Assembly (NCBI RefSeq): GCF_056746865.1
Contig: NZ_CM163382.1
DNA: 64,000 nucleotides
Strand: one strand, 5' to 3'
Part shown: positions 2,260-8,845 of the stretch, one piece after another
How the letters are laid out: every line of letters starts with the position of its first letter
Position numbering within the stretch: the first letter of the stretch is position 1
Position numbers and translations under genes: made by a program
The notes under the pieces: model-generated
The model's input: the letters and a program-made list of their open reading frames with translations, nothing else
What the model was told of the DNA's origin: nothing
Database searches by the model: none

Positions 2260-3209
<950 letters not shown>

Positions 3210-3235
<26 letters not shown>

Positions 3236-3938
3236 GATGCCAGCGCAGCAAGTTTGCCATCGCAAAGAGATATTTTTCGCTGGCTTCGTCGGAGGAGATG
3301 GGTGGAAACTCTGCGGTGATGCAATGCAGGTTGAGATCCGCACACCAACTGCCGAAAGAGCCAGGCGTTTCATAACCGACGCTGGTTACCAGAGGCAATT
3401 CAAACGCCTGGGCCAGCCATTCACCTAATTCGCTGTGTCTGGGATCTTCAATACAGGCCAGCGGATCGTGGAATGAGACCACCCAGGCGGGTTGAATGCG
3501 GTGTATAAGCTGGCACAGCGCCTGGGTTTCAGGTTCAGAGCCAGGTTTGTCACCTGTCAGCAATACGACATCACGTTCTTCAGCGGCGCTGTTCCAGCGA
3601 TAAACGGTTTCACCTTCCTTCCAATTCGCCGCCGGAAAGTTTCTGTTTAAATCCACACCATTAGCATTGGCCCGTAACCCCAACTGGCAGCCGTCAGGAT
3701 TCACACACAGCACCACATGATGACGGCGCAAAGAAGGTGTCAACGTCCGCAGAGCACAGGAGAGCGTGACGACCGAAGAGTTTTCATCACCGTGAGTGCC
3801 AGCCAGAATCAAACCACTTTCGCGGCTGGCTGCAGGGGCAGGAAACCAGATTAACGGCGCGCCCAATAATGAACGTCCGTAATGTTCTGTTCCGGGCGGA
3901 AATGCGCCGCGTTCGGCGCGTGGGCGGGTTACGGTCAT
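3210..3938 (-). CDS. mpaA: Murein tripeptide amidase A (zinc carboxypeptidase-like), 242 aa
   Basis: ORF 3210..3998; start set to internal Met (MTVTRPRAERGAF...) giving 242 aa; 3' end overlaps ycjG 3' end on opposite strand. Confidence 0.88.
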
Positions 3939-4033
3939 GATCGTCTCTGGTTCAGGAAGTATTACAGGCAGTGTTGTGCAAATTTTGCGGATTATCAAAT
4001 CCTTTTCTTCAACGCTATGTCATCGATCTTGTA

Positions 4034-4064
4034 TCACTTTTTTGCCGGAAGTTGTTTGCATTTT
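4034..4064. promoter_or_regulatory. Conserved ~30-bp motif upstream of mpaA (near-identical copy upstream of mppA)
   Basis: tcacttttttgccggaagttgtttgcatttt here versus tcacttttttgatggaagttgtttgcatttc at 7145..7175; 28/31 identical. Confidence 0.45.
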
Positions 4065-4228: not shown

Positions 4229-4867
4229 TTACATGAAGAATGGCTTATCGCCATCAGTCCCGGGCTGATTGATGCCTATATTCTCACCAATGTGTTTCTC
4301 AGGTTTATCGATGATATCTGTAATTAATGCTGCGACACTCTTACGTGATACGATCGTACCTTTGAATGGTTCATTGCGTGAGGTAAGCTCATAATCAATA
4401 ATATCTTCATCGGTCAGCCAGGCAGGGCGAAGAATTGTATATTCCAGTCCAGAAGCCTCAATTGCATCCGCAGCCCTGCGGAATGGTTTTAGGGGCTCAC
4501 CAATAACTGCATTATTCCATTCGCCAAATTTTCCTGGAACTTCATCATAAATACCGAGGGAAAGAACAAAGATCAGACGTTTAACATCACAGGCTTTCAT
4601 CGCAGCGATCACTGAATTTGCCTGAATATCTAAATCTTCCCCCGTAAGGTTGGCATACACAACATCCTGTCCCTGCATGGCCTGCTTCAGTGCCGCATGA
4701 TTCAGTACATCCCCCATAATAATCTTGCTATTAGTTGGATAGGGTTTGTGGATTTTTGCTGGCTGACGGGCAAATAAAGTTTGTTTAATGGTTTGTTTAT
4801 CTGCCAGTTGATTAATCACATGGCGGGCTATCTGACCGCCAGCACCAAGAATCAGTACATTTTTCAT
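4229..4867 (-). CDS. ymjC: NAD(P)-binding NmrA/SDR-like oxidoreductase, 212 aa, uninterrupted
   Basis: N-terminal Rossmann motif ILGAGGQIARHV; position between mpaA and ycjY; symbol assigned by synteny and is less certain than the product class. Confidence 0.7.
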   Translation of the reverse strand: MKNVLILGAGGQIARHVINQLADKQTIKQTLFARQPAKIHKPYPTNSKIIMGDVLNHAALKQAMQGQDVVYANLTGEDLDIQANSVIAAMKACDVKRLIFVLSLGIYDEVPGKFGEWNNAVIGEPLKPFRRAADAIEASGLEYTILRPAWLTDEDIIDYELTSRNEPFKGTIVSRKSVAALITDIIDKPEKHIGENIGINQPGTDGDKPFFM

Positions 4868-4937: not shown

Positions 4938-5858
4938 TTACAGAGTTTCCTCAAAGAACGGCGCTAATACTGAAATTGCTTCAGCCACATAGACTTTGCC
5001 GTCATAAAGATCCATATGGTTTGCGCCTTCAACAATGTGATAGCGTTTATCCTGGCTTGATGCTCGATCGTACAGGTCGTCACTCATCCATTTGCTCCCT
5101 GCCTGGCTGCCCGCCACAATCTGTATCGGCTGAGTCAGGTACACTTCCGCCATATGGTAAGCATCATAGGTAATAATCTGGTTAAGGCTGCGCAAAGTAG
5201 TGTAACCCGGTGCTGTTGGATACTGCGCGCGAGGGGTGTGGTAATACTCCCAGGCCTGACGCAGTTCTTCGTTCGGCGCATCGGACTCCTTCATTGGTGC
5301 CAGTGGCATGGTGGCGTATTCTCCGCTGCTAATATCGCTGGTTCGGGCGTTTGAACCCGCGTCAACGTATGGTAGGGCATCAATAGATTTCACATTGTTT
5401 TCCCAACCATTACGGAACATCGAACCAATATTGACCGCACTAACAGTACCGATGGCCTTGATGCGGCGATCCTGAATTGCAGCATTGGCTGTATATCCTG
5501 CACCGGCACAAATTCCCATCGCACCAATTCGGCTATTGTCGACATAAGAAAGCGTTGTCAGATAATCAATCACGGCACTGACGTCTTCAGTACGAATGTA
5601 TGGGTTTTCTAACTGACGCGGCTCGCCGCCGCTTTCACCTTGATAAGATGCGTCATAAGCAATAGTGACAAATCCCTTTTCCGCCAGTTTTTCGGCATAG
5701 GTTCCAGCCGTTTGCTCTTTAACGCCCCCACCTGGGTGAGATACCACAATTGCCGGATACTGACGGGTTTCATCAAATTTTGGAGGGAAATAGATCACTG
5801 CAGACAAAGAGATGGTTGGATTATTGCTGTTAGTGAAGCTGACTTTATTATTCATCAT
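4938..5858 (-). CDS. ycjY: Alpha/beta hydrolase (dienelactone hydrolase-like), 306 aa
   Basis: ORF 4938..5870; start set to internal Met for 306 aa; GxSxG-like segment GAMGICAGAGY. Confidence 0.8.
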   Translation of the reverse strand: MMNNKVSFTNSNNPTISLSAVIYFPPKFDETRQYPAIVVSHPGGGVKEQTAGTYAEKLAEKGFVTIAYDASYQGESGGEPRQLENPYIRTEDVSAVIDYLTTLSYVDNSRIGAMGICAGAGYTANAAIQDRRIKAIGTVSAVNIGSMFRNGWENNVKSIDALPYVDAGSNARTSDISSGEYATMPLAPMKESDAPNEELRQAWEYYHTPRAQYPTAPGYTTLRSLNQIITYDAYHMAEVYLTQPIQIVAGSQAGSKWMSDDLYDRASSQDKRYHIVEGANHMDLYDGKVYVAEAISVLAPFFEETL

Positions 5859-5928
5859 TCCGTTCCTCATGGAGTTGTCGGTTCGTTTTAACGGTTGGTG
5901 ATATCACTATAGATATTGATCATTAAGT

Positions 5929-5971
5929 TGATTAGACCCAAAATCATGATTAGACCTATCATTTAAATGAT
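5929..5971. promoter_or_regulatory. Putative LysR-type operator in the ycjY-pgrR divergent region
   Basis: direct repeat tgattagacc x2 (5929..5938, 5947..5956) followed by perfect palindrome atcatttaaatgat (5958..5971), 25 bp upstream of the pgrR ATG. Confidence 0.4.
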
Positions 5972-5995
5972 TAATAGATTGTATGGAGATACTGA

Positions 5996-6895
5996 ATGAA
6001 GCGTGAAGAAATCGCTGATCTGATGGCGTTTGTCGTCGTTGCAGAGGAGCGTAGCTTCACTCGCGCAGCAGCCCGCCTGAGCATGGCGCAGTCAGCTTTA
6101 AGCCAGATAGTGCGCCGTATAGAAGAACGATTGGGATTGCGGCTTCTGACACGAACCACGCGCAGCGTTGTACCCACTGAAGCGGGCGAGCATCTTTTGT
6201 CTGTTCTTGGCCCTATGTTGCATGACATAGATTCTGCCCTGACATCCCTGAGCGATCTGCAGAACCGCCCATCCGGGACAATACGTATTACTACTGTAGA
6301 ACATGCAGCAAAAACGATATTGTTACCAGCTATGCGCACATTCCTGAAATCGCATCCTGAAATTGATATCCAGCTTACCATTGATTATGGTTTGACCGAT
6401 GTCGTTTCTGAACGTTTTGATGCAGGCGTCCGTCTGGGTGGGGAGATGGATAAAGATATGATCGCCATTCGAATCGGGCCAGATATACCAATGGCTATTG
6501 TTGGCTCACCGGATTATTTTTCTCGTCGAAGTGCTCCAACGTCAGTGTCACAATTAATAGATCATCAGGCAATTAATTTGTATCTTCCCACATCGGGTAC
6601 AGCAAATCGCTGGAGATTAATACGCGGTGGACGTGAAGTTCGTGTTCGCATGGAAGGTCAGCTTTTACTGAATACGATAGACCTGATCATTGATGCTGCA
6701 ATTGATGGGCATGGATTGGCGTATCTACCTTATGATCAGGTTGAGCGGGCTATTAAAGAAAAAAAACTGATACGTGTTTTGGATAAATTCACACCAGATT
6801 TACCCGGTTATCACCTGTACTATCCACACCGTCGACATGCTGGCTCGGCATTCTCATTATTTATAGATAGGCTGAAGTATAAAGGTGCTGTTTAG
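5996..6895 (+). CDS. pgrR: LysR-family transcriptional regulator PgrR (YcjZ), 299 aa
   Basis: N-terminal HTH MKREEIADLMAFVVVAEERSFTRAAARLSMAQSALSQ; LysR substrate-binding domain; synteny. Confidence 0.85.
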   Translation: MKREEIADLMAFVVVAEERSFTRAAARLSMAQSALSQIVRRIEERLGLRLLTRTTRSVVPTEAGEHLLSVLGPMLHDIDSALTSLSDLQNRPSGTIRITTVEHAAKTILLPAMRTFLKSHPEIDIQLTIDYGLTDVVSERFDAGVRLGGEMDKDMIAIRIGPDIPMAIVGSPDYFSRRSAPTSVSQLIDHQAINLYLPTSGTANRWRLIRGGREVRVRMEGQLLLNTIDLIIDAAIDGHGLAYLPYDQVERAIKEKKLIRVLDKFTPDLPGYHLYYPHRRHAGSAFSLFIDRLKYKGAV

Positions 6896-7144
6896 CACTA
6901 CTTGCTGATACATTAATTTAATTCTTCTCTTAACGTATTCTCAGTTCCTTTCAACGTTTTGGTCATTTTTTATTCTTCGTACAATGGCGACAGATGCTGA
7001 TTATGATACCGAAAACGGGTTTGAACGTGCGAAGCCCGAACGTAGTGTTCGGAGTTCTATGTGCTTTACCGCATTTTGGAGACTATTATTTACACTAAAT
7101 CTGATTTGATATATTGATACTTAAAACATTTGATGCTTCCTTTG

Positions 7145-7175
7145 TCACTTTTTTGATGGAAGTTGTTTGCATTTC
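7145..7175. promoter_or_regulatory. Conserved ~30-bp motif upstream of mppA (copy of the mpaA-upstream motif)
   Basis: 28/31 identity to 4034..4064; lies 57-87 bp upstream of the mppA start. Confidence 0.45.
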
Positions 7176-7231: not shown

Positions 7232-8845
7232 ATGAAGCACTCTGTTTCAGTCACGTGTTGTGCGCTGTTGGTCAGCAGCATTTCTCTTTCGTATGCTGCA
7301 GAAGTTCCGAGCGGCACAGTACTGGCAGAGAAGCAGGAGCTGGTGCGCCACATTAAAGATGAGCCTGCGTCGCTGGATCCCGCTAAAGCCGTGGGCCTGC
7401 CAGAGATTCAGGTCATTCGCGATCTGTTTGAAGGACTGGTGAATCAGAACGAGAAAGGGGAGATTGTCCCCGGCGTTGCGACTCAGTGGAAAAGTAATGA
7501 CAACCGTATCTGGACTTTTACCCTGCGCGATAACGCAAAATGGGCGGATGGCACACTGGTAACGGCGCAAGATTTTGTCTACAGCTGGCAACGTCTGGTG
7601 GACCCTAAAACGCTATCGCCATTTGCATGGTTTGCCGCGCTGGCGGGAATCAACAACGCACAGGCGATTATTGATGGTAAAGCTACGCCTGACCAGCTTG
7701 GCGTCACCGCAGTTGATGCCCATACTTTGAAAATCCAGCTTGATAAACCGTTGCCGTGGTTTGTGAATTTAACCGCTAACTTTGCCTTCTTCCCGGTGCA
7801 AAAAGCCAACGTAGAAAGCAGTAAAGAGTGGACGAAACCCGGAAAACTGATCGGTAATGGCGCTTATGTTCTTAAAGAGCGCGTAGTCAATGAAAAACTG
7901 GTCGTGGTACCGAATACCCATTATTGGGATAACGCCAAAACGGTGCTGCAAAAAGTGACTTTCCTGCCAATTAATCAGGAATCCGCAGCCACTAAGCGTT
8001 ACCTCGCGGGGGATATTGATATCACCGAATCCTTCCCGAAAAATATGTATCAGAAGCTGTTGAAGGATATTCCGGGGCAGGTTTATACGCCGCCGCAGCT
8101 CGGGACCTATTATTATGCGTTTAACACGCAAAAAGGGCCGACGGCAGATCAGCGCGTTCGCCTGGCATTAAGTATGACGATAGATCGCCGCCTGATGACC
8201 GAAAAAGTGTTGGGGACGGGCGAAAAGCCAGCGTGGCATTTTACACCAGATGTTACCGCGGGATTTACGCCGGAACCTTCGCCGTTTGAACAAATGAGTC
8301 AGGAAGAACTGAATGCGCAGGCAAAAACTTTGTTGAGCGCCGCTGGTTATGGTCCGCAAAAACCGCTGAAGCTGACGCTTTTGTATAACACTTCAGAAAA
8401 CCATCAAAAAATTGCGATTGCTGTAGCATCAATGTGGAAAAAGAACCTTGGCGTAGATGTTAAATTGCAAAATCAGGAATGGAAAACCTATATCGATAGC
8501 CGTAACACCGGCAATTTTGATGTTATCCGAGCCTCGTGGGTAGGGGATTATAATGAACCCTCCACTTTCCTGACATTATTAACGTCAACGCATTCAGGAA
8601 ATATTTCACGCTTTAACAATCCGGCATACGACAAAGTACTGGCCCAGGCATCAACGGAAAATACCGTTAAAGCGCGTAATGCCGATTACAACGCGGCAGA
8701 AAAAATCCTCATGGAGCAAGCACCGATTGCACCAATTTATCAATATACCAATGGACGATTAATCAAGCCGTGGCTGAGAGGTTATCCCATTAATAACCCG
8801 GAAGATGTGGCGTACAGTCGGACTATGTATATTGTGAAGCATTGA
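7232..8845 (+). CDS. mppA: Periplasmic murein tripeptide-binding protein (OppA paralogue), 537 aa
   Basis: ORF 7211..8845; start set to internal Met for 537 aa; signal peptide MKHSVSVTCCALLVSSISLSYA; family 5 substrate-binding protein. Confidence 0.88.
   Translation: MKHSVSVTCCALLVSSISLSYAAEVPSGTVLAEKQELVRHIKDEPASLDPAKAVGLPEIQVIRDLFEGLVNQNEKGEIVPGVATQWKSNDNRIWTFTLRDNAKWADGTLVTAQDFVYSWQRLVDPKTLSPFAWFAALAGINNAQAIIDGKATPDQLGVTAVDAHTLKIQLDKPLPWFVNLTANFAFFPVQKANVESSKEWTKPGKLIGNGAYVLKERVVNEKLVVVPNTHYWDNAKTVLQKVTFLPINQESAATKRYLAGDIDITESFPKNMYQKLLKDIPGQVYTPPQLGTYYYAFNTQKGPTADQRVRLALSMTIDRRLMTEKVLGTGEKPAWHFTPDVTAGFTPEPSPFEQMSQEELNAQAKTLLSAAGYGPQKPLKLTLLYNTSENHQKIAIAVASMWKKNLGVDVKLQNQEWKTYIDSRNTGNFDVIRASWVGDYNEPSTFLTLLTSTHSGNISRFNNPAYDKVLAQASTENTVKARNADYNAAEKILMEQAPIAPIYQYTNGRLIKPWLRGYPINNPEDVAYSRTMYIVKH

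Follow-up and report, generated by a model that had tools for sequence, protein, structure and literature searches.

A conserved 70-bp block with an ATCA-N6-TGAT dyad between ycjY and pgrR as the probable operator of the LysR-type regulator PgrR in Escherichia coli

Results

The ycjY-pgrR locus

This work concerns the spacer between the divergent genes ycjY and pgrR in a 64-kb stretch of DNA, the whole of which is referred to as the window. Positions 5600-6300 of the window are a 100% match to E. coli strain 7/2, and this segment is present in 5226 of 5426 complete genomes. The genes at the locus are:

2270-3235, plus strand: ycjG, by annotation
3210-3938, minus strand: mpaA, by annotation
4229-4867, minus strand: SDR gene (intact ymjC), by annotation
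4938-5858, minus strand: ycjY, alpha/beta hydrolase, by annotation in strain 7/2 and K-12 and by Pfam alpha/beta-hydrolase families
5996-6895, plus strand: pgrR (ycjZ), LysR-type regulator, by Pfam and by annotation as pgrR in strain 7/2 and K-12
7232-8845, plus strand: mppA, by annotation

The ycjY gene is the first gene of an operon (ycjY, SDR/ymjC, mpaA) that is divergent from pgrR. Two Pfam domains are found in PgrR, HTH_1 at residues 7-65 (1.6e-21) and LysR_substrate at residues 90-294 (1.5e-35), and the pgrR gene starts with an ATG at 5996 with a Shine-Dalgarno sequence, GGAG, at 5985-5988. The spacer is 137 bp long and differs from that of K-12 MG1655 at a single base (5982). The SDR gene is intact here and encodes an NAD(P)-binding protein of 212 amino acids, while the K-12 annotation has at that position only the short fragments ymjC and ymjD. 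The spacer carries the following features:

5906-5975, no strand: conserved control block of about 70 bp, the probable extent of the PgrR operator and both core promoters
5906-5911, minus strand: candidate ycjY -10, TATAGT, a conserved TAnnnT; predicted start at about 5899
5919-5932, no strand: site A, the imperfect dyad ATCATTAAGTTGAT, which overlaps repeat copy 1 and has its center 39 bp from that of the palindrome
5929-5938, plus strand: direct repeat copy 1, TGATTAGACC, with GATTAGAC as its deeply conserved part; proposed as the second, promoter-proximal site (ABS), in the predicted -35 region of ycjY
5947-5956, plus strand: direct repeat copy 2, TGATTAGACC; elsewhere a degenerate half-site (consensus ttgg.c); inside the spacer of the candidate pgrR promoter
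5957-5962, plus strand: candidate pgrR -10, TATCAT, from the promoter scan; overlaps the left arm of the palindrome
5958-5971, no strand: perfect palindrome ATCATTTAAATGAT, of the form ATCA-N6-TGAT; proposed as the recognition site (RBS) that a PgrR dimer would bind with high affinity

A preliminary description of this DNA had reported a direct repeat followed by a perfect palindrome, and both are present. From start to start the repeat copies are spaced by 18 bp, which leaves a gap of 8 bp, and T5957 is the sole base between the second copy and the 14-bp palindrome, which lies 25 bp from the pgrR ATG (24 nt between). The same description had fitted the palindrome to the T-N11-A pattern, which was wrong: the palindrome reads ATC-N8-GAT, i.e. 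T-N10-A, whereas the classical LysR box is longer by one base, and because its length is even a symmetric T-N11-A is impossible. Non-symmetric T-N11-A matches exist, but these are trivial in AT-rich DNA. Site A has 81% identity to positions 5958-5973 and a single mismatch to ATCATTNNNATGAT; through its overlap with repeat copy 1, the repeat unit amounts in essence to the right half-site of site A followed by TAGACC. A 10-bp palindrome, AATCATGATT, is located at 5942-5951. Another perfect 10-bp palindrome, GTGATATCAC, lies at 5898-5907, at the edge of the predicted ycjY start and -10, and is kept in some enterobacterial lineages only.

Of 20,000 dinucleotide-preserving shuffles of the 137-bp spacer, 283 (1.4%) contained a perfect palindrome of 14 bp or longer, 99 (0.5%) contained a direct repeat of 10 bp or longer within 30 bp, and a single one contained both. 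A chance origin of the repeat and the palindrome is unlikely. Such elements are also scarce in the window as a whole, where just three perfect palindromes reach 14 bp and just five direct-repeat segments, spaced by 10-30 bp, reach 10 bp; three of these segments come from one 30-bp tandem array near 36.7 kb. The exact repeat unit occurs in the window in these two copies alone, and two of the nine ATCA-N6-TGAT sites in the 64 kb fall in the ycjY-pgrR spacer. The regions upstream of ycjG, mpaA and mppA lack both ATCA-N6-TGAT and GATTAGAC, and nothing in them resembles ATCATTNNNATGAT at two or fewer mismatches.

Binding and regulation by PgrR

Gel-shift and footprinting experiments with PgrR, together with repression of ycjY-ymjDC-mpaA, were reportedly described by Shimada, Yamazaki & Ishihama 2013 (Genes Cells 18:123). 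Genomic SELEX with PgrR (formerly YcjZ) gave a peak in the ycjY/ycjZ spacer, at a resolution coarser than the base pair (PMC5934670); by coordinate conversion the peak, at U00096.2 1389946, corresponds to about position 5927 of the window. The targets of PgrR in RegulonDB are ycjG, ycjXF-tyrR and ycjY-ymjDC-mpaA (PMC5934670; PMC4797297). In DAP-seq, likewise short of base-pair resolution, PgrR was enriched 5632-fold at the pgrR promoter, compared with 4413 for LacI at lacZYA and 5027 for GlnG at glnALG (PMC10505187 Supplementary Data 6). Knockdown of pgrR by CRISPRi in PPTP-seq raised the activity of the pgrR promoter (log2 +0.97, -logP 10), and negative autoregulation of pgrR was confirmed with a tunable-TF library, whose authors cite a known PgrR site on the pgrR promoter (PMC10505187). 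For the ycjY promoter, the effects of the pgrR knockdown were positive and not significant (log2 +0.60, +0.28 and +0.34; PMC10505187).

Published experiments show, then, that PgrR binds the spacer very strongly and represses its own promoter. The two roles that had been expected for the site, autoregulation and control of the divergent ycjY transcript, are in outline supported; the effect on the ycjY promoter in PPTP-seq was small. Since binding to the spacer and negative autoregulation were already published, the feature mostly rediscovers an established E. coli operator. The PgrR region of E. coli K-12 (Shimada 2013) has the same locus, the same regulator, the same repression of pgrR and of ycjY-ymjDC-mpaA and the same SELEX peak position, and nothing essential differs; what is added here, by comparative genomics, is a base-level delimitation (5906-5975) and the ATCA-N6-TGAT dyad. 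A full-text search of the literature with the literal motif sequences returned unrelated papers only, and a hit to 'PGRR' (PMC12710356) was discarded as a database acronym rather than the gene.

Conservation in enterobacteria and within E. coli

A genome scan with PgrR yielded orthologs with 85-88% amino acid identity in Citrobacter, Kluyvera, Pseudocitrobacter, Shimwellia, Serratia and a MAG, in addition to an Escherichia sp., and enterobacterial column counts were made with 11 sequences from 5 lineages. Third-codon identity in pgrR, between E. coli and the orthologs and among four groups, was 0.41-0.53, which is saturated, so that the set amounts to about five independent lineages. In these 11 sequences, 49 of the 69 columns of the block at 5907-5975 were invariant and the mean column identity was 0.945, whereas in the right flank up to the ATG (5976-5995) none of 20 columns was invariant and the identity was 0.57. 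The palindrome had 13 of 14 columns invariant, repeat copy 1 had 8 of 10, and repeat copy 2 had 5 of 10; the sequence ACTATAG, in the candidate ycjY -10 region, was also invariant. The second copy reads TGATTGGACT, CGATAGGACC or TGATTGGTCT in other enterics. The perfect direct repeat that had been emphasized is present in Escherichia and specific to it, and only copy 1, with its GATTAGAC, is conserved beyond this genus.

Within E. coli, the block was identical in 4481 of 5220 genomes and the 69 bp on its left in 4229 of 5215, a comparison that is uninformative; at least one change within the 69-bp block was found in 738 of the 5220 genomes. A common variant, present in O157:H7 (strain PV15-279), is an A to T change at 5940, in the 8 bp between the repeats. 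In E. coli Z1323PEC0013 (L027), an IS1A element is inserted between the repeat copies (equivalent to about 5936-5944) with the target duplication GACCCAAAA; it splits the operator and cuts ycjY off from the palindrome.

Conservation on plasmids and metagenome contigs

A tblastn search of plasmids identified PgrR homologs with 60-74% identity on plasmids of Rhizobium tropici, Agrobacterium and Kozakia and with 88% identity on Klebsiella IncF plasmids; for the alphaproteobacterial homologs from plasmids and metagenomes together the range was 60-76%. Each plasmid homolog is divergent from a YcjY ortholog, which is usually followed by a second hydrolase and sometimes by an SDR. LysR homologs with 53-56% identity and other neighbors (L020-L024) were set aside; they share just fragments such as GATTAG. 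For the metagenome contigs, the scan pattern was GATTAGASGGNTAAT-N12-TATCA, with the right arm left free. It gave 11 matches, eight of which were directly upstream of a pgrR-like start (M-R/K-R-D-E-I-A-D-L), and a TGAT stood at the dyad offset in all eight pgrR-linked matches vs none of the three chance matches.

Most of the homolog spacers share one ungapped layout with that of E. coli: a minus-strand TAnnnT, 18 nt, GATTAGA(C/G), 20 nt, and TATCA-N6-TGAT. This architecture adjoins pgrR orthologs on the Klebsiella, Rhizobium, Agrobacterium and Kozakia plasmids and on the 8 metagenome contigs, and GATTAGA(C/G) is found at the fixed distance of 20 nt from TATCA on the Rhizobium, Agrobacterium and Kozakia plasmids. 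The exception is the spacer of A. pusense (L019), which is without GATTAGAC and has a second dyad in its place. In a set of 20 distinct sequences, the minus-strand hexamer TAnnnT (TATAGT, TAGATT, TACCAT, TATCTT, TAAATT) was present in every one, with a constant 18 nt between it and GATTAGA; among the candidates for the ycjY -10 it is the sole hexamer whose -10 character and offset are kept in all 20. Because GATTAGA was a selection criterion for the metagenome loci and for the extraction of these 20 sequences, they give no independent support for the GATTAGA motif itself. Repeat copy 2 reads TTATTAGGCC, GCTTGGCCT or TCATGGCCC in the alphaproteobacterial homologs, and the dyad of site A is not kept in them, the invariant parts being only ATT (5922-5924) and GAT.

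Covariation at dyad positions 5 and 10 is partial, with T/A, C/G and many T/G combinations; the seemingly clean covariation of the plasmid homologs is weakened by the frequent T/G in the metagenome sequences. The recognition-helix segment AQSALSQIVRR is identical wherever GATTAGAC and the dyad are intact (I-A-Q-S-G in Kozakia), and L019 and L010, whose upstream element is divergent with GATTAGAC lost, have a changed segment. In alphaproteobacteria, 2-3 nt separate the dyad from the start codon, and the GAGG at the center of the dyad doubles as a Shine-Dalgarno sequence; the center and right arm (TGAGGTGAT) thus also serve translation, 6 nt before the ATG, and conservation there is not purely operator-driven. 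In enterics, there is instead a variable insertion of 24 nt with its own Shine-Dalgarno sequence.

The same comparison bears on whether this AT-rich cluster of TGAT and ATCA is primarily the target of another protein such as H-NS or Fur. It has been found that hns knockdown significantly raises the activity of the ycjY promoter (log2 +0.88), with one independent line of binding evidence in the same table (PMC10505187). For Fur, the best match to the 19-mer consensus GATAATGATAATCATTATC is 13/19, at 5942-5960, but this is a weak match, about 25 positions in the window scoring at least 13/19, and we found no Fur data for the ycjY-pgrR locus. Moreover, the same architecture is present on GC-rich alphaproteobacterial plasmids, always next to a pgrR ortholog, and an element that travels with pgrR in this way fits a cognate regulator and not a nucleoid or iron regulator of the host. 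A primary role of H-NS or Fur is therefore highly improbable, although H-NS probably contributes in E. coli in addition to PgrR.

Promoters in the spacer

The promoter scan gave TAGACC-18-TATCAT for pgrR, with 9 of 12 consensus positions and with TAGACC supplied by repeat copy 1; the region contained two promoter-like matches vs 0.5 expected. An alternative pgrR promoter found by eye, TTGATC (5916-5921)-17-CAAAAT (5939-5944), matches at 8/12, which is below the scan threshold, and its hexamer at 5939-5944 is conserved as CAAAAT/GATAAT. The predicted -35 of ycjY is poor (TAATCA, 3/6). Two transcription starts reported near the spacer lie in pgrR: a minus-strand start at about 6537 (U00096.2 1390556), 667 nt upstream of ycjY and antisense to pgrR, and a plus-strand start of mppA at about 6743 (1390762), 489 nt upstream of mppA and inside the 3' end of pgrR (Kim et al. 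2012). No start within the spacer was found in Kim 2012 (whose starts are one inside pgrR in antisense, one of mpaA and one of mppA), in Cho 2014, which has an RNAP peak only, or in the supplement texts of Ettwiller 2016, of SMRT-Cappable-seq and of ROSE, as far as these texts go. All promoter positions, including the assignment of sites to -65 and -35, are therefore predictions.

Such hexamers might by themselves account for the feature, as overlapping core promoters on both strands and no operator, with TAGACC/TATCAT serving pgrR and TCTAAT, the reverse complement of the ATTAGA inside each repeat copy, serving as the ycjY -10. In addition to the scan, exactly these elements have been proposed within an RpoD-holoenzyme SELEX peak, namely TAGACC-18-TATCAT for pgrR and ATGATA-19-TCTAAT for ycjY (PMC3946193), and an RNAP ChIP peak at U00096.2 1389941-1390291, about 5922-6272 of the window, extends over the 5' end of pgrR and the right-hand portion of the spacer (Cho 2014). 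However, the spacing between ATGATA and TCTAAT is 20 nt by our count, not 19, and purified PgrR alone is sufficient for the 5632-fold DAP-seq peak. Conservation is also far wider than two hexamers, about 50 of the 70 positions being invariant, and the right arm of the dyad, AATGATTAAT, is invariant in enterics even though its location downstream of the -10 is one at which promoter function requires no particular sequence. Furthermore, several alphaproteobacterial homologs have TATCAC and thus lack the key T at -7. Part of the conservation must stem from the promoter hexamers themselves, but promoters in place of an operator are an improbable explanation of the whole block.

A sigma-E promoter for ycjY was also considered, in which the repeated minus-strand GGTCTAATCA would provide -10 elements (GTCTAA). 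This hexamer resembles the sigma-E -10 of rpoE P2. A strong RpoE-holoenzyme SELEX peak (17.2) is located in the spacer, and both pgrR and ycjY have been called RpoE-dependent promoters (PMC5493296). However, there is no GGAACTT-like -35 at 15-17 nt upstream of either minus-strand TCTAA (the best match is 3/7), and repeat copy 2 reads TCCAA instead of TCTAA in other enterics. With -35 matches of 3/7 at most, the candidate was rejected, and there is very little likelihood that sigma-E explains the repeats.

Discussion

The evidence on binding and conservation argues strongly that the 70-bp block (5906-5975) serves as the operator of PgrR and overlaps the promoters from which pgrR and ycjY are divergently transcribed. 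Repeats and palindrome together would form the core of this operator, interleaved with the core promoters of the two genes. A better description than one that stresses T-N11-A and a perfect repeat, both of which we drop, is a conserved ATCA-N6-TGAT dyad with upstream sites containing GATTAGAC in a 70-bp block. The length of this phylogenetic footprint is consistent with the extended protection given by LysR-type proteins (50-60 bp or more).

LysR-type operators generally combine an RBS with a T-N11-A motif near -65 (e.g. NodD, ATC-N9-GAT) and an ABS near the -35 of the divergent target promoter (e.g. Maddocks & Oyston 2008). The PgrR region resembles this classical arrangement in that regulator and target are divergent genes with the site in their shared spacer, in that the strong dyad would overlap the regulator's own promoter and is predicted at -65.5, and in that a weaker upstream site would lie over the target -35 within a constrained region of about 70 bp, both positions being counted from a start that is itself predicted. 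In contrast to the canonical box, the dyad of PgrR (ATC-N8-GAT) is shorter by one base, and PgrR has so far been described solely as a repressor.

Judging from its anatomy and conservation, the dyad at 5958-5971 would be the high-affinity recognition site of one PgrR dimer. It would lie over the -10/+1 of pgrR if TATCAT is the -10, or at about +7 to +21 if CAAAAT is, and either position could lead to autorepression. The repeat copies, at 18 bp, are too far apart for one dimer, and the second dimer of a PgrR tetramer may occupy the less symmetric upstream part, which comprises site A (5919-5932) and both TGATTAGACC repeats. With the predicted ycjY start at about 5899, the centers would fall at -65.5 for the palindrome, at -52.5 for copy 2 of the repeat and at -34.5 for copy 1. 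Without ligand, PgrR would sit on the promoter-proximal site and block ycjY, whereas a ligand could cause a shift to the distal site, as in the sliding-dimer model for LTTRs such as BenM, so that ycjY would be relieved and possibly activated; pgrR would be autorepressed throughout, with or without ligand.

In BenM/CatM of Acinetobacter, sites 1, 2 and 3 are about 21 bp apart, and the inducer switches the tetramer from sites 1+3 to sites 1+2. The PgrR operator may be similar, as it has three 14-bp frames containing ATCA or TGAT (5958-5971, 5937-5950 and 5919-5932), whose centers are 21 and 18 bp apart (39 overall) and the outermost of which overlaps the target promoter. However, the middle frame has a right half-site only, and the resemblance is best taken as a lead. 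This specific assignment of RBS and ABS and the sliding-dimer switch are plausible, if tentative, and we hold to them less firmly than to the block being the operator.

The context of the operator is that of a cassette. A 37-bp direct repeat is located upstream of mpaA (4027-4063) and of mppA (7138-7174), with 86% identity and a core, CACTTTTTTGNNGGAAGTTGTTTGCATTT, that agrees at 27 of 29 positions, and it brackets the SDR, ycjY and pgrR genes. It is probably the motif of 'finding 4' in the preliminary description, which had raised the question of whether PgrR recognizes that motif as well. The 37-bp repeat has neither ATCA-N6-TGAT nor GATTAGAC, and thus nothing suggests that PgrR recognizes this repeat as it would the dyad; the repeat may represent either a regulatory site common to both genes or the footprint of a cassette insertion. 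A sigma-54 promoter in this shared motif was rejected, as by our own count its GG and GC are one base too close. By tblastn, ycjY was divergent from pgrR in all 20 non-Escherichia loci, and neither mpaA nor mppA was found near the cassette in any of these 20, which suggests that in the Escherichia lineage the SDR-ycjY-pgrR cassette was inserted between two divergent genes, mpaA and mppA. The pgrR-ycjY unit, in many cases with a second hydrolase and an SDR, is found on Klebsiella IncF, Rhizobium, Agrobacterium and Kozakia plasmids (L016-L019, L025, L028-L037), where the loci often adjoin IS elements or integrases. YcjY identity across the cassette loci is 74-93%, and about 80-85% for the alphaproteobacterial ones. 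The pgrR-ycjY unit with its operator is a mobile cassette on plasmids of Gamma- and Alphaproteobacteria that is without mpaA or mppA.

The presence of the cassette on plasmids without mpaA and mppA calls into question the specificity of PgrR for peptidoglycan recycling. A bolder and rather doubtful possibility is that PgrR is not primarily a repressor of peptidoglycan recycling; it would instead be the cognate, ligand-switched LysR-type regulator of a mobile cassette of alpha/beta hydrolase (YcjY), in many cases a second hydrolase, and SDR, with a three-site operator and an insertion in Escherichia. If so, the 70-bp operator may be a three-site sliding-dimer switch, in which the dyad serves as RBS and the ABS may be either a TGATTAGACC copy or site A; PgrR would be a repressor in the ligand-free state and could become an activator of ycjY on binding a non-murein ligand, and its control of mpaA may be a by-product of read-through after the insertion.

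The present analysis corrects the earlier assignment of the site as a T-N11-A box, and the base-level model of the operator, with the dyad and the GATTAGAC sites at 5906-5975, could guide mutagenesis. The mobile cassette context, in turn, may help to identify the ligand of PgrR.
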